64,000 bases of DNA, taken from NCBI GenBank assembly GCA_963843795.1, contig CAWJLW010000006.1, positions 1,240,001 to 1,304,000 of the forward strand, read 5' to 3'. Numbering within the stretch: the first letter of the stretch is position 1; the number at the start of each line of letters is the position of its first letter. Origin of the DNA: an uncultured bacterium. GTDB taxonomy: Bacteria > Armatimonadota > Abditibacteriia > Abditibacteriales > Abditibacteriaceae. This document shows positions 4,359-62,845 of this stretch, one piece after another. Made by a program: the position numbers and the translations under genes. The notes under the pieces were generated by a model. It saw only the letters and a list, made by a program, of their open reading frames with translations, had not been told where the DNA came from and did not search any database.

Positions 4359-4762
4359 GGACGTAGCTGTAAACGCTTGCAAGTACTTGCGGGGTCAGAA
4401 TATGAGCGACCAATTCAGAGAGGAAAAGAAAACCACGTCCGCCGATTTCGTGAATCATATCGTTGTAGAAGGTGAGCCGTGTCCGCGCGGTATGGGAGCT
4501 CTGCAAGTACTTGCAGAGCGCTTTTTGATTTAAAAACTACTCGGATTAGGCTCTAAGCGTCTGAGACGGGGGCTTGCTCGAAATCTTTGCTGAGACAACA
4601 AAGCTTCCCTGTGCGCACCTCATCGACGTTATTCACCCATTGTTAATAATTTTAACGTTTTGGCAAATATGGTGTGTATACAAATGTATCGTGTTACGCA
4701 CTGGAAGAGAACTTCTAAAGCGTGCTCATATAATTCCACTACTTTGCTTGAAGTCAAGATTT

Positions 4763-7700
4763 ATGATCAAACCAAACTGCATTACAACATTCGCGTGCAC
4801 ATTATTAATCAGTGTGTTGCTGGGATTGAACAGCACAGCCCGAGCAGCGCTGTTGACTTGGACAGGCGACCAGTCGAGCGATGTGCTGAATGCGAATAAC
4901 TGGAGTCCAGTTCAAGTGCCGACCGAAGCGGACAGTCTCGTGATTAAAGGTAAAGCCGTCATCCTCAATTCCGACCTCACCGTCAGCGGGCTAGACATCT
5001 CGGGCGCAGGTGGCCTGCTTTCAGGTAGCGGCAATCTTTCTCTCACTTCGAGTTTCACAATCAGAGATGCTACAGTCAGTGGCACAGGTATTCTTACCCT
5101 CGGCTCAGGGTGTGTGAGTGATGTGCATGATCCCCATTTCGATCGCGTTGTCTACAACAATGGCCAAATGATTTGGAGCGGCAGCAATATTGACTTAAGC
5201 AAGAACTTTTACAATCAATTCGGCGCCCGTTTCAACATTCAAACAGATGGGCGCATTGAATCGAAGGTAAGCCCAATGCCGAGCTTTATCAATGCAGGGG
5301 AGTTCACCAAATCTGGTGCGAATGGCCAGACTGATGTGCGGGTTACCATGGAGAATAGTGGCGTTATTCGCTTCACTTCCGGTACCCTGAAGCTTCCTCC
5401 CGACTTTCGACAGACCGGTGGGCTTTTCGATATTACTGGCGATGTCAGCGGTTCAGCAGACTTCCCGTTGCTTATTTCTGGCGGTGTTTTAGTTGGAACA
5501 GGTAAGATTCAGGGCGATGTGATCAATGACGGTGGTGTGGTCGCAGCCGGGTATTCTCCTGGCAGCATTACTATCAACGGCAATTACACGCAAACTAGCA
5601 ACAGCACTTTGAACATGGAGATTGGTGGCACCAGTCCGGGCACCGGTTACGATCAGCTTGTGATCAACGGTTCGGCTTCTCTGGCTGGAACCATCAACCT
5701 TATCTCGTATAACAACTACCTCCCTCCCGTGGGCGCCAGTTTTAAGCTCATCACCTACTATTCGGTCGCTGGCTCCTTCAATACAATCAACGGTCTTACT
5801 CCCAGCAACGACCGCCGCTACAACGTCACTCAGGCACCCACCTATTTCCTGGCCAGTGTTGTGGCCTCCGAGGTGGCTTCGGCGGCTCCCGTAATCGGCC
5901 CCATTAGTGATCACAGCATCGATGAGGATACCGCGACGGGAGCTATCGCGTTCACGGTTAATGATAGCGACACCGATCCCAACACACTGACAGTTACCGC
6001 CACATCTTCGAATTCGGCTCTGGTGCCCGCTTCCGGTATCGTCTTAAGCGGCAGCGGCATCAGCCGCGTGATCTCCCTCATTCCCGCGGCCAACAAATAT
6101 GGTCGTGCGACCATCACGGTGCAGGCCAATGATGGCACCAGCACTTCAAGCGCTTCTTTTGTCTTGCAGGTTCTGCCCGTCAACGATGCGCCAGTGGCTG
6201 ATAACGACAGCGCAAGCACCAACGAAGATACGCTTCTGGATGTGACTGTCTTGGCCAACGACACCGATGTGGATGGTGATACCCTGCGCGTGGTGCGCGT
6301 GGCAACAGCGGCGAGCACCCATGGCAGCGTAAGCATCAACCCCGACGGCAAACTGCGTTTCATACCCGCAGCCAACTACAACGGCCCCAGCACATGGAGC
6401 TATACCATCAGCGATGGAGCCGTAGAAGCCACCGCTACGGTGACGGTGCAAGTACTTGCGGTGAACGATGCGCCCGTAGCGCACAGCCAAAGCATCCAAA
6501 CCGCAGCGGATACAGCGGTTTCTCTGGTGCTGAGTGCCAGTGACGTGGACGGCAACCCGCTTTCTTTCGAAATTGTCACTCCGCCATCTCATGGTAGCCT
6601 GTCGGGAACTGCTCCTAACCTGCGCTACACGCCGGCTGCCGGCTTCAGTGGAAGTGACTCGTTCTCCTTCCGCGCCAACGATGGCACCGCGCTCTCGGCT
6701 GTAGCCACCGTGACGCTGCAAGTCGCAGCCAAGCCCACACCAGTTCCGCCAACACCAGTTCCGCCGACACCAGTTCCGCCGACACCAGTTCCGCCGACAC
6801 CAGTTCCGCCGACACCGGAACCGCCTGTTACAGAACCGCCAACGCCAGTGCCGCCGACACCATCGCCGGATCACATCGCGCCCACCGCGAATTTCACAAC
6901 GCCGACGCACGGCGCGATTCTCAGCGCGCTGCCGCTTTTGCGTGGCCAGATGAGAGATAACGAAGGCGGTAGTGGTATAGCGGGCGTGCAAGTGGCAATT
7001 CAGCGCTTCGATGGCAAAACATGGTCGGGCAACAGTTGGGAAAGTAGCATTCAGCGCTTGCCGGGGCTAACCAGTGGCAGCAGCTGGGGCTTCAACAATG
7101 TGCCGCGCGCAGCGGATTTGGTCGATGGACCCTATCGCATGGCGGTTTGGCCTATTGACAACGCGGGCAACAAAGGCTTCACCCTGATTTCATTCCGCAT
7201 CGACGCCACAGCGCCACAATTGATGTGGGCCGCCCCGACGGCCAGCGCCAGCAACGCAGTCGGGCTACAATACGCGGTGCGCGCCAAAGATGCGGGCGGC
7301 ATGACCAGTGTAGAAATTTCGATTCAGCGCGGCAAAGATGGCGCTTATTGGAACGGGAGCGCTTGGCAGAGTGCGCCCGCAGCCCTTAGCACCGCTTTCG
7401 GTGGCGCTTATTGGGTGTTGCGCGCCGGTGCACCGCCGGCAATGGCGATGGACGCGGGCCGATACCAGTTAACGGCGACTGCTATCGATCACGCCGGTAA
7501 CAAAGCCATCGCGCGCCAACTCTTGACCTTGAGCGGCGCGGGCGGTTCGGCCACGACTTCCGCGGTGAGATTGTCGCGGGCAGCCGCGCGCGTTGCAGAC
7601 AACGCCATCGACCTATTCTTCACCGGGCCGCTGCAAATCGCCTCCTTGCGCGATGATGCAGAATTCAAAATACACATCAACGGAGCTGAAGTCGAAGTCG

Positions 7701-7864
7701 TGGAGAAATCGTATACAGCAGCGGGCAACCAGCTAACGCTGAGTTTGAGCGGTGGCGTCTTGGTGACAGGAGCGCGTGTCGAAGTGGTATGGGGCGGAAT
7801 CCGCGACGCCCAGGGTGCACCCTTAGCCTCGGGACAAGGAGCGTTTACGGCTGCTGCATCATAA
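4763..7864 (+). CDS. Large secreted/surface protein: autotransporter-like beta-strand region, tandem cadherin-like/Ig repeats, Pro-Thr linker, C-terminal Ig-like domains
   Basis: Signal peptide ending ARA-A; GYSPGSITINGNYTQ..LNMEIGG..YDQL; repeated VNDAPVA..EDT..DxDGD/N motifs; start chosen at MIKPN (4763). Confidence 0.75.
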   Translation: MIKPNCITTFACTLLISVLLGLNSTARAALLTWTGDQSSDVLNANNWSPVQVPTEADSLVIKGKAVILNSDLTVSGLDISGAGGLLSGSGNLSLTSSFTIRDATVSGTGILTLGSGCVSDVHDPHFDRVVYNNGQMIWSGSNIDLSKNFYNQFGARFNIQTDGRIESKVSPMPSFINAGEFTKSGANGQTDVRVTMENSGVIRFTSGTLKLPPDFRQTGGLFDITGDVSGSADFPLLISGGVLVGTGKIQGDVINDGGVVAAGYSPGSITINGNYTQTSNSTLNMEIGGTSPGTGYDQLVINGSASLAGTINLISYNNYLPPVGASFKLITYYSVAGSFNTINGLTPSNDRRYNVTQAPTYFLASVVASEVASAAPVIGPISDHSIDEDTATGAIAFTVNDSDTDPNTLTVTATSSNSALVPASGIVLSGSGISRVISLIPAANKYGRATITVQANDGTSTSSASFVLQVLPVNDAPVADNDSASTNEDTLLDVTVLANDTDVDGDTLRVVRVATAASTHGSVSINPDGKLRFIPAANYNGPSTWSYTISDGAVEATATVTVQVLAVNDAPVAHSQSIQTAADTAVSLVLSASDVDGNPLSFEIVTPPSHGSLSGTAPNLRYTPAAGFSGSDSFSFRANDGTALSAVATVTLQVAAKPTPVPPTPVPPTPVPPTPVPPTPVPPTPEPPVTEPPTPVPPTPSPDHIAPTANFTTPTHGAILSALPLLRGQMRDNEGGSGIAGVQVAIQRFDGKTWSGNSWESSIQRLPGLTSGSSWGFNNVPRAADLVDGPYRMAVWPIDNAGNKGFTLISFRIDATAPQLMWAAPTASASNAVGLQYAVRAKDAGGMTSVEISIQRGKDGAYWNGSAWQSAPAALSTAFGGAYWVLRAGAPPAMAMDAGRYQLTATAIDHAGNKAIARQLLTLSGAGGSATTSAVRLSRAAARVADNAIDLFFTGPLQIASLRDDAEFKIHINGAEVEVVEKSYTAAGNQLTLSLSGGVLVTGARVEVVWGGIRDAQGAPLASGQGAFTAAAS
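6734..6866 (+). repeat. 15-bp tandem repeat encoding a (PTPVP)n linker
   Basis: Repeated CCGACACCAGTTCCG-like units within the CDS. Confidence 0.9.
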
Positions 7865-7956
7865 TGGGTATGATTTGAAAGGGCGCCCTATCGAGTAAAT
7901 ACTCAATAAAATGGAGTGCGCCCCTGGCAGCTTATCTTGAACAGCCAGCATAGATA

Positions 7957-8965: not shown

Positions 8966-8968
8966 ACA

Positions 8969-9006
8969 CACAAAAGGCGCTGCAAGTACTTGCAGCGCCT
9001 TTTGTG
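8969..9006. terminator. 38-bp perfect palindrome centred on TGCAAGTACTTGCA
   Basis: CACAAAAGGCGC-TGCAAGTACTTGCA-GCGCCTTTTGTG, just after the stop of the AP2-like gene. Confidence 0.7.
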
Positions 9007-10600: not shown

Positions 10601-12316
10601 TTAAAACAAGAAATAACGCTGCGCCATCGGCAATTCACTCGCTGGTTCGCAAGTCAAAAGCTCGCCATCGGCGCGCACTTCATAGGTTTCGGGATTGACT
10701 TCAATCTTCGGCGTCGCGTCGTTGCGAATCATATCTTTCTTTGCAACGGCACGGCAATCTTTGACAGCCACTATCATCTTCTGCAGTTGCAAACGTTCCG
10801 GCAATCCGTCTTCAATGGCCTGCTGTGATAAAAACGTAGCGCAAGTACTTGCGGGCGCGCGACCGAAGGCTCCGAACATCGGGCGGCTCCACACTGGCTG
10901 CGGTGTGGGAATTGAAGCGTTGGCGTCGCCCATTTGACTATACGAAATCGCGCCGCCTTTGATAATTAAATCCGGCTTGACGCCGAAATACGCGGGCGAC
11001 CAGATCACTAAATCGGCCAATTTGCCGCTTTCAATCGAGCCGACCAGATGCGAAATGCCATGCGTGCGCGCCGGATTAATCGTATATTTGGCCAAGTAAC
11101 GCTTGATGCGTTCGTTATCGCCATCGAGCGTTTCTTCGCTTAAAGCGCCGCGTTGTTGCTTCATTTTGTGCGCGGTTTGCCAGGTGCGCGTGATAACTTC
11201 ACCGATGCGGCCCATCGCTTGGGAATCGCTGCTCATCATAGAAAGCGCGCCCAAATCGTGCAGAATATCTTCCGCCGCGATGGTTTCACCGCGAATGCGC
11301 GAATCAGCAAATGCCACGTCTTCGGGAATATCGGGGTCGAGATGATGGCACACCATTAACATATCCAAATGTTCTTCCAAGGTGTTCATCGTGTAAGGCC
11401 GCGTCGGGTTGGTCGAAGAAGGCAGCACATTGGGATAACCCGCGACTTCTAAAATGTCGGGCGCGTGGCCACCGCCCGCGCCTTCGGTATGGAAGGTGTG
11501 AATGGTGCGCCCATCAATCGCGCGCAGCGTGTCCTGCACGAAACCGGCTTCATTCAGCGTATCGGTGTGAATGGCGACCTGCACATCCATTTCATCCGCA
11601 ACGCGCAAGCAAGTATCAATCGCTTTGGGCGTGGTGCCCCAATCTTCGTGCAATTTCAGTCCGATGACTCCTGCAAGTACTTGCTCGCGCAGCGGCGCTT
11701 CGCTGCTGGCGTTGCCCTTGCCGAAAAAGCCCAAGTTCATCGCAAACGCTTCGGCACTTTCCAACATGCGTGCGATGTGCCAAGCGCCCGGCGTGCAAGT
11801 CGTGGCGAGTGTGCCATGCGCCGGGCCGGTGCCGCCGCCGAGCATCGTGGTGATGCCGGACGTGGCCGCGACTTCGATTTGTTGCGGACAGATGAAATGA
11901 ATGTGTGAATCTATCGCGCCTGGCGTGACGATTTTGCCTTCGCCCGCGATGACTTCCGTACCCGCGCCGACAATTAAATTCGGGTCAACACCATCTTGAA
12001 TATCGGGATTGCCCGCCTTGCCGATGCCCACAATGCGCCCATCGCGCAGGCCAATATCGGCTTTCACGATGCCCCAATGGTCAATAATCAGCGCGTTGGT
12101 AATGACGGTATCGAGCGTGCCATCATTGCGCCCTAAACGCGAATTTTGGCCCATGCCGTCGCGGATGACTTTGCCACCGCCGAATTTAATTTCTTCGCCG
12201 TAAACGGTGTGGTCTTTCTCTACGACTGCCCATAAATCGGTGTCGGCCAGTCGAACGCGGTCGCCGGTCGTCGGCCCGAACATCGCGGCATAGGCCGCGC
12301 GCGAAATGCGGCTCAT
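10601..12316 (-). CDS. ureC: Urease subunit alpha
   Basis: [52 protein letters not shown] and SSDSQAMGR. Confidence 0.98.
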
Positions 12317-12678
12317 AATTGCTCCCACTTGTTCAAACGCTCGCGCGCTTCGCTGCAAGTACTTGCACCATCGCTGAGGCCATTCAAACCGAAAACTTTT
12401 TTCGCACCGCCGATTTCAACCAGCGTGATCATTTTGGTTTCGCCCGGTTCAAAACGCACCGCAGTTCCCGCCGCGATATCGAGACGCATATTGAAAGCGG
12501 CTTCGCGGTCGAACTGAAGGGCGCGATTGGTTTCGTAAAAGCAGAAATGCGAGCCGACTTGAATCGGACGGTCGCCGCTATTAGCAACTTCTATCTCGAT
12601 TGTCTGACGGTTCGCATTGAGTTCGAGAGTTTCGTCGGGAGTTTGAATTTCGCCGGGAGTGAACGGAGAATTTGTCAT
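12313..12678 (-). CDS. ureB: Urease subunit beta
   Basis: [16 protein letters not shown] and [16 protein letters not shown]; overlaps the ureC start by 4 bp. Confidence 0.95.
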
Positions 12679-12679
12679 T

Positions 12680-13396
12680 TTAAAAATGAAACCACGGAAT
12701 TTCGATGCCTTGAATCCAGCAAAAGCCAACGATGCATGAAAGCACGCCCGCAAGTACTTGCGCGCCGGTGGAAAGCGCGTTTAAACGTTTGCCGCCCCAT
12801 GTTATCGCGCCACCTAAGACTCCGGCATAAGCCGTCATCGACATCAAAACGCCCACGCTGAAAAACAGCGTATATAAAATCACAGCGCCATAAGTTTGCG
12901 AAACCGCGACTAACGCTTGTCCGACAAACGCCGCTGTGCCCGCCGCGCCGTGTAACATTCCCATCCACAACGATCCGCGACCGGCGTGTGTGTGTGTTGT
13001 TCCGTCGGCGTGCGTGTGAGTAGAAATTTTGCCGTCCGCGCTGTCGAAGTTTTCAGAGCCGTAATGATGATGATCGTGTGTGTGATGCCCGTGTCCGGGC
13101 ATCAATTGTAGCAGTGTCCAGATGCCAAGGCCGAGCAGAGCGAAGCCGACTAATTTTTCCAGCCCGCCCGAAGCCGTTTCGCTGATAGTAAGCTTCAGCG
13201 CGAACAAAATCAGACCGATGACAAACAAGCTGAAACCATGTCCAATGGCCCACTGCATTCCGAACTTTGCCGCTTGACGCGGCGAGGGGCGTCGCGCGAC
13301 GAAAGTTGTGACTGCCGTCATGTGATCCGGCTCGAAAGCGTGTGCGGCACCCAGCAGAAACGCGGTGCCATAAACTACCAACCAGTGCATATCCAA
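12680..13396 (-). CDS. UreH/HoxN-like nickel transporter (urease accessory membrane protein)
   Basis: [16 protein letters not shown], His-rich loop, GMLHGAAGT; about 6 TM segments; adjacent to ureB. Confidence 0.8.
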
Positions 13397-13442
13397 AGCG
13401 GCCTCCCCTCAAACGCAAATAGTTTATCTATTTCGCTCGGAG

Positions 13443-13546
13443 GCGCAGAGTTTTCGCAGAGTGCGCAAAGGTTTTTAAAGAAATTTTTTCTGGCAAGTAC
13501 TTGCCATATCTAATTCTCTCCAAAATTTTCTGCGAAAAATCTGCGA
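13443..13546. repeat. Imperfect inverted-repeat element (CGCAGAG-type arms) carrying TGGCAAGTACTTGCCA
   Basis: CGCAGAGTTTTCGCAGA ... TCTGCGAAAAATCTGCG arms; shares 21 bp TTTTTTCTGGCAAGTACTTGC with the 45765-45868 element. Confidence 0.6.
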
Positions 13547-13558
13547 GAAACGGGAAGC

Positions 13559-14263: not shown

Positions 14264-14305
14264 AAGTTGCACTTCGTGTGCTGCAAGTACTTGCAGCATC
14301 GAAAA

Positions 14306-15154
14306 TCACTCCGCTTCCACGCGCCGTCCCAGATACACATCTTTCACTTGTTCATTCGCCTGCACTTCGTCCATCGAGCCTTCGCAGAGTATTTTACCTT
14401 CGTGCATCACTGTCACACGGTGCGCGAAGCGGCGCACAAATTCCATGTCGTGTTCGACGACCAAAATCGAATGTTGCGCGGCGATGCGGTGCAACAGTTC
14501 GCCCATTTGTTCGGTTTCGTGATCGGTCATGCCCGCAGCGGGTTCGTCCAATAAAATGGCTTCAGGTTCCATCATCAAAATCATGCCGATTTCCAGCCAT
14601 TGTTTTTCACCGTGCGATAACGAACCGGCCATGATGTCGGCGCGTTCGGTTAATCCGACAGTTTCTAAACAATTGTTTACGCGCTCACCCGTTTTATCCG
14701 TGCGCTTGATTCGCAGATTGTGCCACACGCCGCGCGGATTTTTAGCGCATAAACCCAGATTCTCACGCGCGGTTAAAGACAGAAAAACCGATGGTGCTTG
14801 AAATTTGCGTCCGACGCCCAGACGCGCGATTTGGTGTTCCTGTAAACGCGTCAAATCGCGCTGGTTTTTGAAAACGACGCGGCCCGCTGTGGGTTTGGTG
14901 CGTCCGCACATCACGTCCAAAAGCGTCGTTTTTCCGGCTCCGTTGGGGCCGATGAGAAAGCGCACTTCGCCTAAATTAAGAGCGAAATTTAGGTCTTGCA
15001 CGGCTTTAAATCCATCGAAATCGACCGTCACATTTTCTGCGCGCAGAATGTCTTGCGCGTCCTTTAAGATGTCGCAAGTACTTGCAGGTGAGTTTCCAAG
15101 CCTTTCAGTTGTCGAGGATGGGTTGAGATTCGAGTTTGCCGGTGAATTGTTCAT
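14306..15154 (-). CDS. urtD: Urea ABC transporter ATP-binding subunit
   Basis: FDGFKAV, GPNGAGKTT, GRKFQ and LSHGEKQWLEIGM; start uncertain. Confidence 0.92.
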   Translation of the reverse strand: MNNSPANSNLNPSSTTERLGNSPASTCDILKDAQDILRAENVTVDFDGFKAVQDLNFALNLGEVRFLIGPNGAGKTTLLDVMCGRTKPTAGRVVFKNQRDLTRLQEHQIARLGVGRKFQAPSVFLSLTARENLGLCAKNPRGVWHNLRIKRTDKTGERVNNCLETVGLTERADIMAGSLSHGEKQWLEIGMILMMEPEAILLDEPAAGMTDHETEQMGELLHRIAAQHSILVVEHDMEFVRRFAHRVTVMHEGKILCEGSMDEVQANEQVKDVYLGRRVEAE

Positions 15155-16229: not shown

Positions 16230-16295
16230 AAAAATTTTATTCAGAAATTGGTAATGGTCGCGGTGCAAGTACTTGCACCGCGATTCGGGCGCAGT

Positions 16296-17198: not shown

Positions 17199-17315
17199 AA
17201 AAAGAGAGGAGAAATGAGAAATGAGAGGAGAGATGCTCAGCAAGTACTTGCGGGTGAAGAAAGAGCGCTACAAGCCGTTTCTCTTTTCCTACTTCTCCCC
17301 TCCCATCTCTTTTTC

Positions 17316-18644: not shown

Positions 18645-19142
18645 TAATTGCTCTCCGTAAAATTTGCGAATTTTGCGTCGCACCTTAAAAGTGCGGAACA
18701 GGCGCGACGACACTGTTCAAAATTCTAAGCGCCAAAAATTTCGGTCGCGTTAAGAAAACGTAAACGAAAAGTGTTTTTTAGGTTTCAATTGGCCGCAAAA
18801 CAGTTCTTCCGCGCCCGAAATTTCGGAACTGGCGCTGGCAAAGTCGGGAAATTAGCGACGTATTTATGCTGGCGTTATAAGGAAGGCGGGGAATCGACGG
18901 CGATTTGTTGGCCGATTAATCTGACGAAATGCGGCTTCGAAACTTGAAATCAACGCAAAGTTTTTCTATTGCACACGTCAGAGAAACATTTTTGAAACAT
19001 CTCTGGGCTAAATTTTGTGCAACGCCGCCAATAAGGGTGCAAAAGGCGTCGCGATGCGGGGCTGGAAACATGGAAACAGACCCCAAACATCGCAACGCCC
19101 AAGTACGATTATGTAGTGGCCATTATTTTTGGAGGTTGCATT

Positions 19143-21799: not shown

Positions 21800-21879
21800 A
21801 AAGCGCGCTGCAAGTACTTGCAGCGCGCTTTCAACAATTCAAACGTGCCGTGCAAGTACTTGCACGGCACGTTTGAATT
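21800..21879. terminator. Two tandem perfect palindromes (32 bp, 21800-21831; 44 bp, 21836-21879), each centred on TGCAAGTACTTGCA, between convergent glnA and gyrA
   Basis: Read directly from the sequence; the two arm sequences are unrelated. Confidence 0.75.
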
Positions 21880-24505: not shown

Positions 24506-24545
24506 CATTAATTGGCCCTGCAAGTACTTGCAGGGCCAATTAATG
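24506..24545. repeat. 40-bp perfect palindrome centred on TGCAAGTACTTGCA in the divergent gyrA / histidine kinase spacer
   Basis: CATTAATTGGCCC-TGCAAGTACTTGCA-GGGCCAATTAATG. Confidence 0.85.
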
Positions 24546-26645: not shown

Positions 26646-26879
26646 AGCGATGAACCGAAAATTGTTACTGCAAGTACTTGCAAGGTCAAATTCGTGTATC
26701 CAGCTCGTTTGATATCCAACTCGTTTGATAAGATGTGTGAGCTTTTAAAAATATTGAAATCGCTTAAAATTCACCGATAAATCGTTTCCTGAATCCAAAT
26801 CATATGCGCGGGTGTTAGTGATGATAAAATGATTTACCTTTAAGGCATTGTGGAATGTCACGGGCCGCGATTGAAATTT

Positions 26880-27883: not shown

Positions 27884-27935
27884 AGCCAACGCAAAAGCGC
27901 CCTGCAAGTACTTGCAGGGCGCTTTTGCGTTGGCT
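27884..27935. terminator. 52-bp perfect palindrome centred on TGCAAGTACTTGCA between convergent GGDEF gene and gyrB
   Basis: AGCCAACGCAAAAGCGCCC-core-GGGCGCTTTTGCGTTGGCT. Confidence 0.75.
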
Positions 27936-27949: not shown

Positions 27950-30385
<2,436 letters not shown>

Positions 30386-31664: not shown

Positions 31665-31700
31665 AAAAACGGCCCTGCAAGTACTTGCAGGGCCGTTTTT
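31665..31700. terminator. 36-bp perfect palindrome with A/T-run ends between convergent genes
   Basis: AAAAACGGCCC-TGCAAGTACTTGCA-GGGCCGTTTTT. Confidence 0.8.
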
Positions 31701-34719: not shown

Positions 34720-35018
34720 CACCGCATTCTGCTGTGTATCGGGCCGGAGTGTTGTGCGGGCGAAGCCGGACTGGAGACTTGGGAATTTCTCAAAAGCGCT
34801 TGAAAGAGCTGGGGCCGAATTTTGGCGTGTATCGTTCCAAAGTCGGCTGTCTGCGCATTTGCTCGCGTGGGCCCATTGCACTGGTCTATCCCGATGACGT
34901 CTGGTACCATAGCGTTTCGCCAGAAGTGTGCGAGCGCATCGTGGACGAACATTTGATCGGCGGCGCAGTGGTAAGCAAATACGCGTTTGCGCTGAATCCG
35001 TTGAACGAAGCAACATAA
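34720..35018 (+). CDS. Thioredoxin-like [2Fe-2S] ferredoxin, frameshifted at the A4 run 34792-34795; start unclear
   Basis: [17 protein letters not shown] joins [33 protein letters not shown]. Confidence 0.75.
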
Positions 35019-35059
35019 AACCAAAGGCCACTGCAAGTACTTGCAGTGGCCTTTGGTTT
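35018..35059. terminator. 42-bp perfect palindrome centred on TGCAAGTACTTGCA between convergent genes
   Basis: AAACCAAAGGCCAC-core-GTGGCCTTTGGTTT. Confidence 0.75.
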
Positions 35060-37772: not shown

Positions 37773-37987
37773 GGAAAAGTTAAAGGCTGCAAGTACTTGC
37801 AGCGAGGAATTGGGTCATTGATACGACAACGCATGCCCTGCAAGTACTTGCAGGGCATGCGAAGCGCTAAAGTGTGTTGAACAAGCTTTTACCTAATCTT
37901 GTTCGATGAAACTTGCGCGAGTTTGGCTCGCAATATCCAGCGCAAATTTAAAGCACATCTGATGCTTTGCAAGGAAGCCAAGCCATA

Positions 37988-41865: not shown

Positions 41866-42145
41866 TCTTGTCACCTCCACTCCTCTAAAATATCAAACGT
41901 ATAATAACTATAACCCATGCACCGAAAATTGTAACCTTTTGTGAAAAATAAAAAACGCTTACCTTTATTTATGGTGTGTGCGTGGAATCGAAAAGTGTAG
42001 AAACTCTGGTTGTGAGTCACTCTCAGCCACTCTTTTGGATAAGATATTGTTAAGTATGGGTTCGAAAGCCGCTCGCATTGTGTAGCGTTCCCATAAAATT
42101 GTCCCTGCCAGTCGTTGCAAGTACTTGCAACGCCATTTCTCTCTC

Positions 42146-42979: not shown

Positions 42980-44127
42980 TGGCTAAGAGAATGATTTCCT
43001 TTGGCGTAATCGGTTGCGGTTTGATGGGGCGCGAATTCGCTTCGGCTGCGGCGCGCTGGTGCCACCTACAAAACCTTGATTTTCAACCGCAAATTGTCGC
43101 CGCCTGTGATGCCAATCCGCAAATGACCGACTGGTTTGCGCAAAATGTCCCCAGCATTAAACGCACCACAACCGATTATCAAGAATTGTTAAACGACGAT
43201 TCGATTGAAGCGATTTACTGCGCGGTGCCGCATCATTTGCACAGCGAAATTTACGGTGACATCCTGCGCGCGGGCAAACATTTACTGGGCGAAAAACCGT
43301 TTGGCATTGACCAAGCCGCGAATCAAAAAATTAACGCGGCCATTCAGGAGCATCCGCAAGTACTTGCACGTTGCAGTTCGGAGTTTCCTTTTTATCCGGG
43401 CGCGTTTCGCTTGCAAAACTGGATCAAGGAAAATCGTTTCGGTCGCATCATCGAAGTCGAAGCCGGTTTCTGGCATAGCAGCGATCTCGACCCCAAAAAG
43501 CCCATTAATTGGAAGCGCCGCATTGCCACTAATGGCGAATATGGTTGCATGGGCGATTTGGGTTTGCACGTTTTGCACTTGCCGCTGCGCTACGGTTGGA
43601 AGCCGAAAAATGTGCGCGCCCTGTTATCGAAAATCGTTGCGCAACGACCGGACGGGCAGGGCCAGATGGCGAATTGTGAAACCTGGGACAACGCGATTTT
43701 AGCGTGTGAGGTGGAAACGGAATCGCAAAGGTTTCCGATGACGCTCTCAACCAAACGTATCGCGCCGGGTCATGCCAACACATGGTTTTTGCGCGTGTGG
43801 GGCACAGAATTTTCTGCGCAATTTTCCACACAAAACCCGAAACAAATTCAATTTATGCCTTATCAAGCGGGCGATGAACAAGCGTGGCGCACGCTGGATA
43901 TGCCATATCAATCGGCATATGAAACGATTACTGGTGGTATTTTCGAGTTCGGCTTTTCCGATTCGATTTTGCAAATGTGGGCCGCATTCTGCGATGAAAT
44001 TACACACGGCGATGATATGATCGGCGTGTTTCGATGCGCTTTGCCAAGCGAAGCCGCACTGTCGCACGAGATTTTTAGCGCCGCATTGCAATCGCAGCGC
44101 GAAGGCCAAACTGTGAAATTAACATGA
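42979..44127 (+). CDS. Gfo/Idh/MocA family oxidoreductase
   Basis: GVIGCGLMG, AVPHHLH, GKHLLGEKP and DLGLH. Confidence 0.9.
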   Translation: MAKRMISFGVIGCGLMGREFASAAARWCHLQNLDFQPQIVAACDANPQMTDWFAQNVPSIKRTTTDYQELLNDDSIEAIYCAVPHHLHSEIYGDILRAGKHLLGEKPFGIDQAANQKINAAIQEHPQVLARCSSEFPFYPGAFRLQNWIKENRFGRIIEVEAGFWHSSDLDPKKPINWKRRIATNGEYGCMGDLGLHVLHLPLRYGWKPKNVRALLSKIVAQRPDGQGQMANCETWDNAILACEVETESQRFPMTLSTKRIAPGHANTWFLRVWGTEFSAQFSTQNPKQIQFMPYQAGDEQAWRTLDMPYQSAYETITGGIFEFGFSDSILQMWAAFCDEITHGDDMIGVFRCALPSEAALSHEIFSAALQSQREGQTVKLT

Positions 44128-45224
44128 GTGAATCGGTTCCACTTTGTCTTGTCGCGGGCCACATTTGCCTCGACATCATTCCGCAATTAGCCGCGCGTCA
44201 TGGTGAAAATTTGGGCCTGGTGCCAGGCAAGTTGGTCAATGTTGGTGCGGCGCAACTGGCGACGGGCGGCGTGGTTTCCAACACCGGTTTAGCGCTGTAT
44301 CGACTGGGCGCACCGGTGCGTTTGCTGGGCAAAGTCGGCGACGACGAATTAGGTCATATCATTCTGCACATTTTGAGCGCCCACAATGAAATACTGGCGC
44401 GCGACATGATTTGCGCGCGTGACGAATCGAGTTCCTACACTTTAGTTTTTAGCCCGCCCGATGTAGACCGAATGTTTCTGCATCATTCGGGTGCCAACGA
44501 CACCTTTTGCGCCGCCGATGTGCCCGATGAAATGATGCAAGACGCCGCATTACTGCATTTTGGCTATCCGCCGCTGATGAAGGCGATGCGCGAAAACGGT
44601 GGCGCCGAATTAGAAACTTTGTTTCGGCGCGCGAAAGCGCAATCTCTTACCACATCGCTCGATATGACTTTGCCCGATCCCAACGCGGAATCGGTCGATT
44701 GGCCCGCGCTTTTAGCACGCGTGCTGCCGCACGTCGATCTGTTTCTGCCCTCGTTGGATGAGCTGGTGTGGATGATTGACCGCGAAAATTTCGGACGCTT
44801 AAACAATGGAATTCCTGATGCTGCTTGGCTGCAAGTACTTGCAGAGCGCGTTTTGGAATTGGGGGCGGCCATTGTAGTCATCAAACTGGGCGCACGCGGT
44901 TTGTATGCGCGAGTTAGCGAAAATGCAGCGCGTTTGGAGCGAATGGGACGTGGGGCGCCGCGCGATGTGGAAGCATGGCGCGGGCGTGAAAGGCGAATCG
45001 CGCCATTTGAAATCGAAGTCGCGGGCACGACCGGCGCGGGTGATGCGGCAATTGCCGGTTTTCTTTTCGGCTTATTGAACGGTTTTTCTTTACAGCAAAC
45101 TTTGGTCGCAGCAGCGGCGAGTGGCGCGTGTTGTTGCGAATTTTCGGATGCAACGACGGGCGTGCGGTCGTGGCCGGAAATCGAGGCGCGTTTGCAAAAC
45201 GGTTGGGCACAACAAGCGATTTGA
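44124..45224 (+). CDS. PfkB-family carbohydrate kinase
   Basis: GGVVSNTG, LGKVGDDELG and GTTGAGDA. Confidence 0.9.
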   Translation: MSESVPLCLVAGHICLDIIPQLAARHGENLGLVPGKLVNVGAAQLATGGVVSNTGLALYRLGAPVRLLGKVGDDELGHIILHILSAHNEILARDMICARDESSSYTLVFSPPDVDRMFLHHSGANDTFCAADVPDEMMQDAALLHFGYPPLMKAMRENGGAELETLFRRAKAQSLTTSLDMTLPDPNAESVDWPALLARVLPHVDLFLPSLDELVWMIDRENFGRLNNGIPDAAWLQVLAERVLELGAAIVVIKLGARGLYARVSENAARLERMGRGAPRDVEAWRGRERRIAPFEIEVAGTTGAGDAAIAGFLFGLLNGFSLQQTLVAAAASGACCCEFSDATTGVRSWPEIEARLQNGWAQQAI

Positions 45225-45764: not shown

Positions 45765-45868
45765 CACCGCAAAGAACGCAAAGGACGCAAAGATTTTGAA
45801 AAGGTATTTCTTTTTTCTGGCAAGTACTTGCAAAGCGCAATTTATAAAACTTTGCGCTCATTGCGGTG
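45765..45868. repeat. Imperfect inverted-repeat element (CGCAAAG-type arms) carrying GCAAGTACTTGC
   Basis: CACCGCAAAGAACGCAAAGGACGCAAAG ... CTTTGCGCTCATTGCGGTG. Confidence 0.65.
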
Positions 45869-49460: not shown

Positions 49461-49533
49461 AACACGCTGCAAGTACTTGCCAATGCCGCTGCGCATAATA
49501 TGCGCCCAAAGATAACGAATTGAAGCTGAGCCT

Positions 49534-51987
49534 ATGAAACCCCTTACTTGTTCGTGGTGCGATGCGTCCAACATTGCGGGCGCAACGACATGTGCCAGTT
49601 GCGGCGCGCCCTTGCGCGAGGAAGGTGCGCGCTTGGTAATGGAATCGGTCGCGCGCGCCCTGCCGCCCGACACCGTGCTGCGCGATGGCGATTATAAAAT
49701 TCTTGCGATTTTAGGACAGGGCGGATTTGGCATCACTTATCGCGCCCTCAATTCTCGCCTGGGACGCGAAGTGGCGATCAAAGAATTTTTTCCGTCTTCG
49801 TGCGACCGCGAAGGTTTGTTAGTTTCCCCTTCGGGCGGCACGACAGCGATTGATTATGAAAATGGCAAAGCGGCGTTTTTGAGCGAGGCGCGCGTTTTGG
49901 CGCGCTTCGATCATCCGGCGATTGTGCGCGTGTTCGGCGCGTGGGAAGAAAATCGCAGCGCTTACATGGAAATGGAACTGCTGCGCGGCCAAACTCTGGC
50001 GCACGTTCTTGAACAGTATCGCCGCCTCAGCCCCAGCGATGTGCTGCGCTTGTTCGGCCCAATTTTGGATGCCCTGCAAGTACTTCATAACGAAGGTTAT
50101 CTTCACCGCGATATCAAGCCGCAAAACCTGATGTTGTGCGCTGTTGCGCAAGGCGCGACCGATGCTGAGGGTTGCGTGCGTCACGCGCGCGCCGTGCTGC
50201 TCGATTTTGGAGCCGCGCATCATGTCGGCAGCGGCGTGTCGCAAGCCTTATCGGTCGTGGTCACGCCCGGTTACGCTCCGTTGGAACAATACGCAGTGCG
50301 CGCTCGCCGCGGCGCTTTTACCGATATTTACGCCCTGTGCGCGACGTTGTATCACGCTTTGAGTGGGCAAGCACCGCCCCCTGCTTCAGATCGCGCCATC
50401 GGTCAAGCCTTGACGCCCTTAGAAGATTTGGTTTCGGGCTTACCCAAAGAATGGTATCGCGCCATCAACGCCGGTTTGCAAACCGAAATCGCCAAACGCC
50501 CGCAATCGGTGGGCGAATTGCGCGCGCTGATGGGCGGCCAAAATCCATCCGCGCCGCCACCGTATCAGCCTTATCAAAGCGCGCCCAAACCGTATGGTGT
50601 TGATGATTCATCGAAAATCCTGAATCCTTCGCAGCCTATTGGCGCGAACAATCCCAGTTCGCAAGCACAATCCCTCATCGCCCAATCGTTGATGAACGCC
50701 GTGCCCGACCCGAACGCGCCGCAAGTACTTGCAGCGCCCAATCTCAATCTGCAGCATCCGCTGAGCGCGTCGGGCACATCGCCCGCGTTGTCGCAGCCGG
50801 GCAGCGTGCAAATGGTGCCCCCACAGGCCTCGCAAAACGCCGGAAATCAGCCCAGCACCGCGCAGCAACACGCGCAAAATCAAACGCAGCTCAACAACGC
50901 GGCCAACGACGTGCGCATGCGCCAAATCGCCGCGCTGTTGTACTTGGGAAGTCCGATTGTGTTCGCGCTGCTGTGGTGGCTGTTTGCGGTTTCTCAAGGC
51001 CCGCACGCTGGCCCGCCGCCGATGCCGATGGAAGTCTCGCCACCAATTACGCGACCGTATGAGCTATCGGCTCCCATTAGCAAACCTTTCAGTCCGCTGC
51101 CCCCGATTACCAAGCCTTATAATTCGTCGCCGGTTGCGCCTATCACTTTATCTTCGCCGCCACAAATGCGGTTTTCGATGACCAAACCGTTCTTGGATGA
51201 CGAAGGCAAACGTTTGTCTGTGCCAAGTGCAAAACCAGAATGGTCCCTGAAAACCATTGACGGCAATATAGCCAGTTTCTCAAATTACGCCAACAAGAAA
51301 AGTTTGCAGTGGATTGTCGATGCTAGCGAAGACTTTCGCATTGATAGTTTTCAATTCGCGCCTGATAACAGTTGGGTAATGGCGCGTATCTATCGTAATC
51401 GTGCTGGAAACAGCAGTGAGCGTATCGTATTTTTTGACTTGCAAACTGGCAAACCTTTCAGCAATTGGAAGAACGAGCCTTCCCCTTATTACGGTAAAGA
51501 GTTCGATTTCACTATTTCGCCCAAAGGTCGTTATGTTGTGATTCGCAATGGAATTAACGCGTTGCGGATTTGGAATGTGCGGACGCACGATGATCTGATT
51601 TTACAGTGGGATTCTCCACACAGAAATTACTATCAGCCTTATCGTACGCATAATGAAGAGCGACTTTTAGGTAATCGCCTGACTTTTTCGCCCGATGAAA
51701 GCAAAATCGTTATGATAGATGGCCCAGAAATTTCTGAAAATCTCCGTTTGGGTGGATTTGGTGCAGATCCGCGCGATAAAATTCGTCTGATCGACTTGGT
51801 CACAAATCAGGTGCGCGAAGTAGCCAGTCCGCATAATATTTCCAGCTTAAAACTGCAGTTCACACCTGAGGTCAAGTCGGTCGCGTGGTTTGATAGCGGC
51901 ACTTATCAACTGGGGGACCTAAAATTGGCGGCGTTCACCAATCCTGTGCCGGTGCAAGTACTTGCAGGTGGCCCGCCAACGCCGTAA
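49534..51987 (+). CDS. Ser/Thr protein kinase with N-terminal Zn ribbon, TM helix and beta-propeller-like C-terminus
   Basis: CxxC..CxxC, LGQGGFGITY, AIKE, HRDIKPQN, DFG and GYAPLEQ. Confidence 0.9.
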   Translation: MKPLTCSWCDASNIAGATTCASCGAPLREEGARLVMESVARALPPDTVLRDGDYKILAILGQGGFGITYRALNSRLGREVAIKEFFPSSCDREGLLVSPSGGTTAIDYENGKAAFLSEARVLARFDHPAIVRVFGAWEENRSAYMEMELLRGQTLAHVLEQYRRLSPSDVLRLFGPILDALQVLHNEGYLHRDIKPQNLMLCAVAQGATDAEGCVRHARAVLLDFGAAHHVGSGVSQALSVVVTPGYAPLEQYAVRARRGAFTDIYALCATLYHALSGQAPPPASDRAIGQALTPLEDLVSGLPKEWYRAINAGLQTEIAKRPQSVGELRALMGGQNPSAPPPYQPYQSAPKPYGVDDSSKILNPSQPIGANNPSSQAQSLIAQSLMNAVPDPNAPQVLAAPNLNLQHPLSASGTSPALSQPGSVQMVPPQASQNAGNQPSTAQQHAQNQTQLNNAANDVRMRQIAALLYLGSPIVFALLWWLFAVSQGPHAGPPPMPMEVSPPITRPYELSAPISKPFSPLPPITKPYNSSPVAPITLSSPPQMRFSMTKPFLDDEGKRLSVPSAKPEWSLKTIDGNIASFSNYANKKSLQWIVDASEDFRIDSFQFAPDNSWVMARIYRNRAGNSSERIVFFDLQTGKPFSNWKNEPSPYYGKEFDFTISPKGRYVVIRNGINALRIWNVRTHDDLILQWDSPHRNYYQPYRTHNEERLLGNRLTFSPDESKIVMIDGPEISENLRLGGFGADPRDKIRLIDLVTNQVREVASPHNISSLKLQFTPEVKSVAWFDSGTYQLGDLKLAAFTNPVPVQVLAGGPPTP

Positions 51988-53704: not shown

Positions 53705-53937
53705 AACTGCTGTGATACGCAGTGCAAGTACTTGCGGCTCGCTTCGTAATCCATAATGCAATTATGCACCCGTTGCTGCATAAGCCACCATCCAAAGGTT
53801 CTGACTTTGAACGTTGTTCGGTAGAGCGCGGATCTTGTGATTTTGTTGGGATAAATGCAATTATGCGGTATGGCAAGTACTTGCCCTGCTGGCAAATTTT
53901 GACCCGCACGCTGTGCCGCGTCACACTGTACCCAGAC

Positions 53938-56396: not shown

Positions 56397-57178
56397 GATT
56401 GTGGCCCTGCAAGTACTTGCAGCGTGCAATGCGATTGCAAACGTGCGCGCGAAGCACCGCGAAAGCGTCCGCTGTGCGGCAGAACATCGCGATAATCGCG
56501 CCCATGTGCTACCGCGACATTGATTTCACCGATTTCGCGCCCGTGCGTCGGGTCGAAAGCGCGCCATTTTTCATTCACCAAAACTTCCACCCACGCGTGC
56601 ATTTGCCCTTCCTGAGCGCCGTAACCCGCGACGTAACGCGCCGCAAAACCAGCTGCACGGCATAAGGCAATCATCAAGTGAGCGTAATCCTGACACACGC
56701 CCGCGCCTATTTTCAAGGCTTGCGAAGCCGTCGTATCGGCACTAGTCGCGCCAGTTTCGTAGCGCAAACTTTGGTGCGCCAATTGATTTAGCTTCTGAAC
56801 CTTTTCTAAATCGCAGCAAGTGCTTGCAGACGCCATCTGGCAAATTTCCGGCGTGCGCTCGCACAACGCCGAAGGCAAACGCCACGCACCGAGATTATTT
56901 TCTACTTTTAGAGCCGAATTTTCTGCGCGATCTTCAACCGTGAAATCGCAGAAAAATCGCAACGATTTCAGCGCGCGATGTTGTAGTTGCAACACGCGAT
57001 TGCCACCTTCATCAATCCAATCGCGCGCATCGTCGGGCGCGGGTTCGCAGTTCCAATCGTACGAAATGAGCTTTTGTGCGCCGCGCAATTGCGGCGGCAA
57101 AATGCGCAGTTCGCGCACGCAATCGCGCGCCGTTTGATTGTAGCGCACGCAAAGAGTTTGATGAACGCGACGCATCAT
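56393..57178 (-). CDS. Transglutaminase-like family protein
   Basis: GVCQDYAH, ARYVAGY, HAWVEV, FDPT and GRDYRDV. Confidence 0.9.
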   Translation of the reverse strand: MMRRVHQTLCVRYNQTARDCVRELRILPPQLRGAQKLISYDWNCEPAPDDARDWIDEGGNRVLQLQHRALKSLRFFCDFTVEDRAENSALKVENNLGAWRLPSALCERTPEICQMASASTCCDLEKVQKLNQLAHQSLRYETGATSADTTASQALKIGAGVCQDYAHLMIALCRAAGFAARYVAGYGAQEGQMHAWVEVLVNEKWRAFDPTHGREIGEINVAVAHGRDYRDVLPHSGRFRGASRARLQSHCTLQVLAGPQS

Positions 57179-57188: not shown

Positions 57189-57218
57189 AAGCGTCCTGCA
57201 AGTACTTGCAGGACGCTT
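57189..57218. terminator. 30-bp perfect palindrome centred on TGCAAGTACTTGCA downstream of gltX
   Basis: AAGCGTCC-core-GGACGCTT. Confidence 0.65.
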
Positions 57219-58707: not shown

Positions 58708-58790
58708 TGTGCGCCAGTTTATCAGGCGTGGGCGATAATTTTACGCTGCAAGTACTTGCAGCGTGTTTTTTGCTTTTCAATTAACATTTG

Positions 58791-59558: not shown

Positions 59559-59740
59559 AGCTAAAATTTCCTCGTGAAAGCGTCTGGCAAGTACTTGCGG
59601 AGCGCGCCATTACAACAGGAATCGTGCCAATATGGGAACGCTATGAAGCTGGAAGTTTTAGGAATTAAAATTCTGGCATGAATGCCAACGAATTCGTTGT
59701 TTGAAAGCTCAGGATACGACAAACACAAAACTTGAAACAC

Positions 59741-60862: not shown

Positions 60863-60877
60863 TAAATACGAAGAGAA

Positions 60878-61381: not shown

Positions 61382-61435
61382 AATCTTTCTCCTCGTTTTG
61401 GCCCAGATGAGCCGTTTTTGACTACACTTGAATTG

Positions 61436-62077
61436 ATGAATAACCCCACAAATTCCTCCGCAAGTACTTGCCCGCCATCTTGCCGTGTCGCGCTCAAAGA
61501 ATGGTCGGCGACCTGTCGCGCTTTGGACGTTGGACGTCAGATCATACTGCTGCGCAAAGGTGGCATTTTAGACGCCGATGGCGTTTTTGAACTTGAACAA
61601 CCGCAATTCTGGCTCTTACCAACGTGGTTTCATCAAGACACCGCGCTATTGCAAAATTCTGACCGCCATTTCTTAGACAGTCCGCAAAACCAAGATAAAA
61701 CGCTGCATTTGCAATGGCTCGCGCAGGTCGCGCGCGTGTGGGCGATTGATGATGCCGATGATGAAAGAGCTCTGCAAGTACTTGCCAGTTTGCCGCACAT
61801 CTGGAGCGAGCGTTATTTGCAGACGCGCGTCCGTTACAAGCCCGATCATCCGTTACTATGTGTAGCGCTGCGTTTATGGAAAGTGCCGCAGGCGCACGTT
61901 GTGGAATCGCATCCAAGTTATTTTGGCTGTCGGAGTTGGATCGAGTTGGACGAAGATTTGCCGCTCAACGACCTGCGCCCCGCGATGGAAGACGAGGAAT
62001 TTGCGATTCAAGTCGGGCAGTTAGATGCGGCTCTGCAAGCTGTGGCGCGCGGCACAAAATCCCAAATGCTGGCTTGA
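61436..62077 (+). CDS. DUF1802-like protein
   Basis: ALKEW..GRQIILLRKGGI..FWLLPTWFHQ..YFGCRSWIEL. Confidence 0.8.
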   Translation: MNNPTNSSASTCPPSCRVALKEWSATCRALDVGRQIILLRKGGILDADGVFELEQPQFWLLPTWFHQDTALLQNSDRHFLDSPQNQDKTLHLQWLAQVARVWAIDDADDERALQVLASLPHIWSERYLQTRVRYKPDHPLLCVALRLWKVPQAHVVESHPSYFGCRSWIELDEDLPLNDLRPAMEDEEFAIQVGQLDAALQAVARGTKSQMLA

Positions 62078-62128
62078 ATTGATACACTGCGGGCGAAAAT
62101 TCACTTTAATTTAAAAGGACAAAACTTT

Positions 62129-62797
62129 ATGGCAGACGAACGCGAAGAAGGCATTAACATCATCGATAGTCGTGGTAGCGCGACTTCTACGAACGAAAAT
62201 GCCGCTGAAACCAATGAAGAAACTTCCACTGAAACCTCTAACGGCCCCGGCTTGCAATTGATCGGCGGCGGCTCTGATGATTCCGGTGCTGATGCCGAAA
62301 TGGTTGTAGGCGACGAAGGTGAAATGGGCGACGAGCCGGAGATGACGCCCGAACAACAGGAAGAATTGCGCGTGGCGATGGAAGAAGAGCAGTTCGCTTC
62401 AATTCAAGAACGTATCGGTCGCGAACTGACTGATGAAGAAAAAGATCAGGTGCGCGAGCAGATGGAAGCGCAGGCACAGGCGCAAATCAATCTCGAAGTC
62501 GCACCGATGTTGCTCGAAATGATGGTGCGTTTGCCGCAATACGCCGCAGTTCACTTGGGCCTAACCGCCAATCCTTATACGCAGCTTATCGCGCGCAACG
62601 ACGAAAACGCGCGCATGGCAATTGACGCTTTCGGCGGCATGTATGATACGGTGAAATCGCACCTCGACAACAACAGTCGTCGCGAATTCGAGCGCGTGCT
62701 GAACGATTTGCGCGTCAATTACACGCGCATCACCGGCCAGCCCATCGGCCCGGCTGGCGGCCCGTCGATCATCACTGGCCCGCGCATTATTCGCTAA
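62129..62797 (+). CDS. Acidic protein with DUF1844-like C-terminal domain
   Basis: HLGLTANP..ARMAID..LNDLRVNY; AAAGGA RBS. Confidence 0.65.
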   Translation: MADEREEGINIIDSRGSATSTNENAAETNEETSTETSNGPGLQLIGGGSDDSGADAEMVVGDEGEMGDEPEMTPEQQEELRVAMEEEQFASIQERIGRELTDEEKDQVREQMEAQAQAQINLEVAPMLLEMMVRLPQYAAVHLGLTANPYTQLIARNDENARMAIDAFGGMYDTVKSHLDNNSRREFERVLNDLRVNYTRITGQPIGPAGGPSIITGPRIIR

Positions 62798-62845
62798 ACA
62801 ATCAAACCGGTTCTGCAAGTACTTGCAGAACCGGTTTGATTGTTT
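62796..62845. terminator. 50-bp perfect palindrome centred on TGCAAGTACTTGCA
   Basis: AAACAATCAAACCGGTTC-core-GAACCGGTTTGATTGTTT, followed by further T residues. Confidence 0.75.

Follow-up and report, generated by a model that had tools for sequence, protein, structure and literature searches.

A highly iterated palindrome and its dialects in Abditibacteriaceae: a candidate species-specific DNA self tag

The palindrome in the window and in its genome

The window analyzed here is a 64,000-nucleotide stretch (positions 1,240,001 to 1,304,000 of contig CAWJLW010000006.1, here C6) from the genome of an uncultured member of the Abditibacteriaceae (assembly GCA_963843795.1, here G000; 4.3 Mb in 11 contigs, 92% complete), a placement reflected in the named relatives of its GyrB, most of which belong to that family. 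Scattered through the window is a self-complementary 12-mer with an AGTACT core. A first-pass annotation, made from the letters alone, had proposed it as a genome-wide signal of the kind known from highly iterated palindrome 1 (HIP1) of cyanobacteria, the DNA uptake sequence (DUS) of Neisseriaceae and the uptake signal sequence (USS) of Pasteurellaceae. Every one of the 38 starts it listed is exact (Table 1), while 100 dinucleotide shuffles of the window gave a mean of 0.01 copies and never more than 1. Copies do lie both inside genes and between them, and the word is, as had been said, none of the HIP1, DUS or USS words, differing from them in sequence and in belonging to Abditibacteriaceae.

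The palindrome signal is real and wider than the window. Exact copies in the source genome total 2,567, and each of the 11 contigs has some; a fourth-order Markov model with the motif masked predicts 0.1, and no other 12-mer ranks higher; the commonest 16-mer is CTGCAAGTACTTGCAG, with 879 copies. Forms with one mismatch number 506 (5 expected) and those with two 371 (106 expected), and the one-mismatch counts show the AGTACT core to be no stricter than the arms. Arm spacing is fixed, with two central bases at 2,652 sites and at most 70 sites for any other spacer. Sites whose right 8 bases are perfect while the left arm departs from the word in 3 or 4 positions number 91, against 28 expected. 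Along C6 the density is flat, at 179 to 205 copies per 300 kb with the GC-skew switch included, and shows no trend relative to origin or terminus.

Contigs assembled from short-read run X1, which may be the source sample, cross the copies at 10841 and 26670 with the motif unchanged; among the pieces listed for runs X2 and X3, none bridges a copy, and no RNA run was among those listed. The same core is carried by unrelated public assemblies of other species. No match to a characterized repeat was found: GCAAGTACTTGC, AAGTACTT and iterated words in Abditibacteriaceae are without description in the main-text literature searched, the available text of PMC11893778, PMC1939737, PMC8919816 and 10.64898/2026.06.24.734251 does not describe this repeat, and a literature search on GTAC methylation in Armatimonadota returned nothing on it.

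Table 1. Copies of the 12-mer in the window, numbered from its first nucleotide. Copy classes rest on our own gene calls and are approximate.
Feature	Position	Evidence
Intergenic, no extension	4379..4390	exact match, gene calls
5 bp extension and T-run, within doubtful 44-codon open reading frame	4503..4514	exact match, gene calls
Coding, large repeat protein	6448..6459	exact match, gene calls
Copy 8982, center of perfect terminator-like hairpin, 13 bp extension	8969..9006	RNA z -8.6
Coding, urease alpha; crossed by X1 contig without differences; no extended hairpin	10841..10852	z -0.8
Coding, urease alpha	11673..11684	exact match, gene calls
Coding, gene upstream of urease alpha	12355..12366	exact match, gene calls
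Coding, nickel-transporter-like gene	12750..12761	exact match, gene calls
Intergenic, tandem	13493..13504	exact match, gene calls
Coding, 5' end of urtE	14283..14294	exact match, gene calls
urtC/urtD junction	15074..15085	exact match, gene calls
Copy 16265, 7 bp extension, between urtB and urtC	16258..16283	extension, gene calls
Between urtA and urtB	17240..17251	exact match, gene calls
Copy 21810, hairpin, 10 bp extension, between convergent glnA and gyrA	21800..21831	extension, gene calls
Copy 21852, second hairpin, 16 bp extension, between convergent glnA and gyrA	21836..21879	extension, gene calls
Copy 24520, hairpin, 14 bp extension, divergent region upstream of gyrA	24506..24545	extension, gene calls
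Intergenic, tandem; crossed by X1 contig	26670..26681	short reads, gene calls
Copy 27904, perfect 52-nt hairpin, 20 bp extension, between convergent GGDEF gene and gyrB	27884..27935	RNA z -11.6
Copy 31677, hairpin, 12 bp extension, convergent	31665..31700	RNA z -7.3
Copy 35033, hairpin, 15 bp extension, convergent	35018..35059	extension, gene calls
Intergenic	37789..37800	exact match, gene calls
Copy 37840, hairpin, 10 bp extension	37830..37861	extension, gene calls
Divergent region	42117..42128	exact match, gene calls
Coding, dehydrogenase	43356..43367	exact match, gene calls
Coding, sugar kinase	44831..44842	exact match, gene calls
Intergenic, tandem	45820..45831	exact match, gene calls
Intergenic, tandem	49469..49480	exact match, gene calls
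Coding, Ser/Thr kinase; weak imperfect hairpin	50721..50732	z -2.6
Coding, 3' end of kinase	51954..51965	exact match, gene calls
Intergenic, tandem	53724..53735	exact match, gene calls
Intergenic, tandem	53873..53884	exact match, gene calls
Coding, 3' end of gene	56409..56420	exact match, gene calls
Copy 57198, hairpin, 9 bp extension, downstream of gltX	57189..57218	extension, gene calls
Copy 58748, 5 bp extension and T-run, upstream of gltX	58743..58764	extension, gene calls
Intergenic	59587..59598	exact match, gene calls
Divergent region	61460..61471	exact match, gene calls
Coding, DUF1802 gene	61774..61785	exact match, gene calls
Copy 62815, hairpin, 19 bp extension, intergenic, tandem	62796..62845	extension, gene calls

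As to its other contents, the window carries a urease, urtABCDE and glutamine synthetase cluster (10601-21765), and an Rfam scan gave a single, unrelated match, 5_ureB_sRNA, antisense inside urease alpha (11869-12167). GyrB (27950-30238) is without an intein, and a 98%-identical database protein, P0002, has an intein domain.

Anatomy, origin and spacing of the copies

Our gene calls for the whole genome (3,630 genes, approximate) allowed 2,563 copies to be classified, among them 762 coding, 1,215 between tandem, 303 between convergent and 263 between divergent genes, giving 0.2 copies per kb in genes and 1.8 to 4.5 between them. The first-pass annotation described the flanks as unrelated, and the flanking sequences of hairpin copies do differ from one another, but a loose symmetric consensus is present: A-tract, GC-rich arm, CT, core, AG, GC-rich arm and T-tract, the A-tract lying on the left and the T-tract on the right at 8 to 11 bp, symmetrically some 15 bp from the dyad. 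Roughly one-fifth of copies, moreover, center a perfect palindrome extended by at least 7 bp on each side, a form found in 62% of convergent copies (189 of 303), 24% of tandem, 9% of divergent and 2% of coding copies (13).

By a simple rule of our own, used in place of TransTermHP, 951 of 2,934 gene ends have a terminator-like hairpin, and AAGTACTT lies inside 650 of these. When folded as RNA, three hairpin copies reach z scores of -7 to -12, while two coding copies give -0.8 and -2.6. Hairpin copies may terminate transcription. The T-tract at +8 to +10 also accompanies 36% of coding and 54% of non-hairpin intergenic copies, and in tandem hairpins it is nearly equal on both sides, which argues that it is part of the word and does not serve termination alone.

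Coding copies were followed into orthologues through 589 of 1,501 alignments (identity of at least 45%, best per region), in which 127 site-by-genome comparisons cover a copy. No gap crosses the 12-mer in 114 of these, and all 23 comparisons to the congener G001 are among the ungapped; in a separate comparison to metagenome relatives, 17 of 19 sites were ungapped. The copies thus arose mostly by substitution. Synonymous resampling yields 2 to 7 coding copies where 763 are observed, and the peptide QVLA occurs 576 times in the proteome, against 38 expected; reading frames are kept, and the three frames are used 503, 145 and 114 times. The word thus bends the proteome of its genome. Its genome-wide spread and mostly substitution-born copies also uphold the earlier opinion that it is neither a CRISPR repeat nor the end of an insertion sequence.

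The copies are spaced more evenly than chance allows. Counts per 2 kb have a variance-to-mean ratio of 0.60, against 0.99 to 1.05 for four control 8-mers; in the relatives G009, G006 and G007, each with its own word (see below), the ratio is 0.38, 0.29 and 1.16. Gaps longer than 4 kb number 80, where random placement by class gives 230 and randomizing the coding copies alone gives 128. Within genes the rate climbs from 0.10 per kb at less than 250 bp from the nearest intergenic copy to 0.47 per kb at 2 to 3 kb, dropping again beyond 3 to 5 kb, where islands lie, and genes with the motif in both flanks have 0.10 copies per kb, compared to 0.18 to 0.21. With protein opportunity held fixed and two islands excluded, the tripeptide QVL is written as the motif at 84 of 174, 103 of 215, 126 of 203 and 163 of 213 occurrences with rising distance, from 48% near to 77% far (p 3e-10); KYL shows a like trend (p 0.03), and the third frame is not significant (p 0.3). 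Such gap-filling indicates that the force favoring copies acts on DNA across 1 to 3 kb and saturates. Together with the ratio of perfect to one-mismatch forms (2,567 to 506), it supports the first-pass view that something maintains the word.

The two longest motif-free gaps on C6, of 26 kb each, contain transposase-like and restriction-like genes, as judged by eye. The first 32 kb of contig C3 are likewise without the motif, and there a contractile injection or phage-tail-like cluster was recognized by eye at C3:2600-27300.

Dialects in the family and candidate factors

Searching related genomes gave a divided answer: the exact 12-mer has 0 to 3 copies in 40 of 40 relatives, but its core is abundant in several. 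AGTACT occurs 2,813 to 4,733 times in G009, G012, G015 and G019 and at most 1,197 times in the other genomes of a 251-genome sample of the phylum, with 0 to 54 copies per genome in families f11 and f34; family f19 is poor in AGTACT as well. Eleven of 27 family genomes have a dense word of their own, at about 2,000 to 4,700 copies each, comprising six AGTACT-core palindromes, one GTAC hairpin and four non-palindromic words; in the other 16 no dense word was seen in samples of 23 to 76 kb, a size at which absence is not proven. G001 uses the dialect CAAAGTACTTTG, with 1,987 copies of AAAGTACTTT; G009, G015 and G019 share TCGAGTACTCGA (2,770, 2,510 and 2,261 copies), G012 has CGAGTACTCG, and three public metagenome assemblies of a relative of 60 to 70% GC have CAAGTACTTG. 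The GTAC hairpin belongs to G006, where the arm AGTACGGTCG occurs 2,567 times. This hairpin is about 24 bp long (AGTACGGTCGA-WT-TCGACCGTACT); 64 of 101 sampled arms are paired, and coding copies are ungapped in 8 of 8 cases (L055, L068-L071).

The non-palindromic words occur in genus g2. That of G020, CACAAAAAATG, has 2,478 copies against 3 to 17 in four congeners, and that of G007, G016 and G018, CAGCCACG, has 2,676 to 3,503 against 131 to 529 in the other 24 family genomes. These words are closest in form to classical DUS and probably represent the same phenomenon as the palindromes. Single words stand on both strands within each locus, although counts are small. Singles in genes are ungapped in 37 of 37 comparisons to G000 orthologues, and inverted pairs were found mainly in G016 and G020 (loci L061, L147, L065, L075-L080, L066 and L133).

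Positions are in part shared between species with altered arms: 5 of 23 in G001, 2 of 35 in G009 and, at metagenome loci chosen for containing the 16-mer, 9 of 19, compared to a control of about 0.1%. Convergence on permissive codons may account for this sharing. GTAC itself is nearly absent (observed/expected 0 to 0.06) from samples of G005, G008, G011, G013, G014, G016, G022, G024, G041 and G042, none of which has an AGTACT word.

Repeats in G002, G005, G008, G010, G014, G017, G024, G025 and G041 were considered as dialects and not counted, being local arrays or longer repeats. One of them, at L041 in G017, recurs every 0.7 to 1.5 kb in a single orientation, like an integron cassette array, and presumably resembles attC. 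Among the first 36 GTDB loci listed for the 16-mer, 35 have one copy of the 12-mer and a 2.9-kb contig has three, so these loci tell little about other phyla. Among viral loci, 12 of 134 have two copies, on AT-rich contigs without similarity to G000. Viral contigs L293, L300, L312, L313, L320 and L357 have several GTGCAAGTACTTGCAC sites in intergenic-looking stretches, possibly phage operators, and the short contigs L152, L173, L185 and L438 have 2 or 3 copies of the 12-mer in 1 to 3.6 kb with little or no similarity to G000; L438, labeled Gemmatimonadaceae, may be mis-binned.

The first-pass annotation had named an uptake receptor, a methyltransferase or repair system, a nucleoid-organizing protein and a recombinase as possible cognate factors. 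Competence genes are present, with ComEC in 27 of 27 and ComEA in 25 of 27 family genomes and DprA in 5 of 5 tested, as is MutL in 5 of 5, but they occur with and without words, making them and MutL permissive rather than discriminating. A pilus-like operon was recognized by eye at C6:385-402 kb, and the genome has 57 prepilin-like open reading frames, most sharing one near-identical N-terminus. A strongly basic pilin considered as a reader proved to be a frameshift read-through.

The one candidate methyltransferase found does not track the word. The only N6/N4 methyltransferase match in G000 is an orphan beta-class enzyme with a DPPY motif (C6:2517365-2518135, minus strand; L048:7365-8135), present in 18 of 23 other family genomes (two broken or partial) at 56 to 75% identity within the family and matched at no more than 39% elsewhere in the 251 phylum genomes. 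The solved enzymes nearest to it are of the beta class, M.RsrI among them, and do not reveal its target. Some genomes that have no AGTACT word carry it too. Within the family the nearest orthologue (75%) comes from G020, where the word lacks GTAC, and G016 combines a dense word with no match to the enzyme. Neighborhoods vary and none is conserved, an Mrr/HARE-HTH gene adjoining only in G005, G014 and G041. With no conserved neighbors and an occurrence both with and without AGTACT words, the enzyme was rejected as the determinant of the word. The near-absence of GTAC from ten genomes that have no AGTACT word leaves room for a link to methylation. No C5 (PF00145) or Dam-type (PF02086) match was found in G000, at its 92% completeness. 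Near the methyltransferase in G003, G017 and G020 lies a protein of 215 to 244 amino acids (L067:5613-6347, L054:7048-7761 and L061:2414-3061), nuclease-like by eye, without a Pfam match in the two of three scanned, two copies having a signal-peptide-like start.

No link to a recombinase or transposase was found. In G000 no intact REP-associated tyrosine transposase (RAYT; REP, repetitive extragenic palindrome) was found, only one weak Y1 fragment near three copies (C6:750-752 kb), beside which copy density is ordinary, and G006 has none. Nor was an Ssn-sized nuclease found in G000, its two GIY-YIG matches lying in frames of 450 and 672 amino acids; G009 has two small GIY-YIG matches.

What might maintain the word

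Being genome wide, mostly substitution-born, diversified into lineage dialects, co-opted at terminators and scarce in islands, the word bears out the first-pass comparison to HIP1 and DUS. It appears, by analogy, to work like DUS/USS and HIP1, and it is a member of neither, as word and lineage differ. We favor reading it as a self tag of the DUS/USS kind that bias in DNA uptake or in recombination maintains and that has been taken over for termination, an analogy that we hold to be evenly balanced between right and wrong. A sequence-specific protein acting in natural transformation, at uptake or at hand-over to recombination, would favor fragments with the word; point mutations toward it would be fixed wherever tolerated, until most stretches of 1 to 3 kb held one; and the extended palindrome would be co-opted as the stem-loop of most intrinsic terminators. 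As the word is self-complementary, a single extended palindrome would do here what takes an inverted pair in DUS. Uptake or recombination would, by the same analogy, be the driving force.

The likenesses to DUS and USS are several, as far as the available parts of the cited papers describe those systems: thousands of near-perfect copies with dialects around a shared core (PMC3630211, PMC2817400, PMC1852404), substitution into tolerant coding positions with an excess of encoded peptides, co-option into terminators, and scarcity in foreign DNA. About 55% of Neisseria terminators are reported to contain DUS (PMC1852404), and USS are described as reshaping the proteome (PMC2817400). The A/T-rich flanks recall the extended USS motif (PMC1852404), here also in coding and non-hairpin copies. 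Unlike DUS and USS, the G000 word is self-complementary, a single copy forms a hairpin and 70% of copies are intergenic, and it differs in sequence and phylum; Abditibacteriaceae, moreover, use unrelated words within one family, and no ComP/ComN-like receptor was identified.

Several observations weigh against the self tag. DUS and USS words are, in what is accessible of PMC1852404, non-palindromic, whereas the G000 word needs both arms, a requirement that a dimeric protein suits equally well. Gap-filling is predicted by a repair model too. Gaps fall in motif sites more often than in random 12-mers, at 13 of 127 (10%) against 1 to 5%, so that some insertions are possible; identity at motif sites is 4 to 6 of 12, against 7 to 8 at random 12-mers, and these two features together place copies in variable stretches. 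The intergenic majority, with about 0.6 copy per intergenic region regardless of its length, could reflect selection at gene ends. Competence genes are equally present in the 16 family genomes without a dense word seen. No reader was found, none of the 57 prepilin-like frames being singled out by charge (no ComP/ComN profile search was made), and the literature searched has no experimental report of competence in Abditibacteriaceae (A. utsteinense).

The leading rival is a methylation-directed repair ratchet, Elhai's model for HIP1, in which the orphan methyltransferase would mark the GTAC/AGTACT core, a nicking partner would read the methylated site in its context and biased mismatch repair would drive flanks toward the word until sites stood about one per kb. 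It predicts, in the accessible text of PMC4390886, that sites become fixed as palindromes and level off close to one per 1,000 nt, which matches the density, evenness and gap-filling observed; the sole N6/N4 enzyme is a family-restricted orphan, MutL is present, and the near-absence of GTAC from ten genomes gives the core a special status. HIP1 (GCGATCGC) and alternate HIPs are, in the parts of PMC4390886, PMC5861425 and PMC13756078 that are available, likewise perfect palindromes at about one per kb, spread by substitution. By the same accounts they keep positions from one species to another, come in lineage-specific variants and extended forms, and belong to a lineage in which an orphan methyltransferase is conserved. 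The G000 word differs in its 12 to 16 bp, its AGTACT core, its 9- to 22-fold greater density between genes than within them and its incorporation into terminators, and HIP1 goes with DmtA/DmtC-type methyltransferases. A periodicity of 10 to 90 kb is also among the traits of HIP1; the evenness measured for the G000 word is short-range. Against the ratchet, no C5 or Dam-type enzyme was found in G000, at 92% completeness; the orphan does not follow AGTACT words, the core is no stricter than the arms, and non-palindromic words cannot be one enzyme's symmetric methylation sites. We consider this model unlikely.

Quite unlikely, in our judgment, is a binding site for an abundant dimeric chromosome-organizing protein with regular spacing kept by selection, a role that Xu, Lawrence and Durand proposed for HIP1, whose conservation is interpreted as selection in the available text of PMC5861425. 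The strict two-arm palindrome, fixed spacing, symmetric A/T tracts and uniformity along the chromosome would suit it, as would positions kept in G001 and the metagenome relatives at about 64% protein identity. Wholesale replacement of the word between close genera, and the 16 of 27 genomes with none seen, fit poorly with an essential structural site, convergence could explain the shared positions, and no candidate protein emerged.

A Chi-like hot spot, read by a nuclease of double-strand-break repair and spread through biased gene conversion, would account for a species-specific word, an origin by substitution and saturating spacing. Chi sites are polar and strand-biased. The G000 word, unlike them, is palindromic and uniform across the GC-skew switch, the genus g2 singles occupy both strands (in small counts), and co-option into terminators is foreign to Chi. 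For HIP1, the accessible part of 10.1101/2024.09.10.611283 suggests two mechanisms, a Chi-like role among them, but we find such a role improbable for the present word.

Highly improbable is a family of REP-like or terminator repeats that a transposase (RAYT) or a single-strand nuclease (Ssn) disperses and that acts at the RNA level. The intergenic majority, the 189 long hairpins among convergent copies, three folded examples far more stable than shuffles, the REP-sized G006 element and the Y1 fragment speak for it, and REP/RAYT and the NTS/SRM hairpins with Ssn nucleases are also species-specific intergenic hairpins in hundreds of copies (PMC11893778, in its available text). REP/RAYT, however, conserves an extragenic hairpin of 20 to 40 bp beside an intact Y1 transposase, and Ssn is a GIY-YIG nuclease of roughly 95 amino acids flanked by its repeat; G000 conserves only a 12- to 16-bp center with varying stems and flanks, and neither enzyme was found in such form. 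For the 762 coding copies, which use all three frames, include just 13 with an extension of at least 7 bp and are mostly ungapped against orthologues, this reading is largely refuted. A sequencing or assembly artefact has negligible probability and is refuted by short-read spanning, by independent assemblies of other species in which the core recurs roughly once per kb, frequently at identical codons, and by kept reading frames with one preferred, despite some frameshifts in the assembly and the rarity of the exact 12-mer in relatives.

Two proteobacterial families are established cases of sequence-selective uptake, and cyanobacterial HIP1 is a suspected one. The function of HIP1 is described as still open after thirty years (PMC13756078, available text), and methylated HIP1 is reported to raise transformation in a cyanobacterium (10.1101/2024.09.10.611283, available text). 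If the self-tag reading holds, Abditibacteriaceae may have evolved, independently of Proteobacteria and cyanobacteria, a third system of DNA uptake sequences, in which reader specificity would change so freely that close genera have AGTACT palindromes, a GTAC hairpin or entirely unrelated words, and the words would be species barcodes that rewrite terminators and thousands of codons, a tentative proposal that we would sooner doubt than assert. One family with several words, and with relatives in which none was seen, is a natural experiment, and comparing the 11 genomes to the 16 could name the reader. The 1- to 3-kb scale of gap-filling is a figure that uptake and repair models must reproduce. 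The words are usable as species-level binning markers, and they probably matter for making Abditibacteriaceae transformable.

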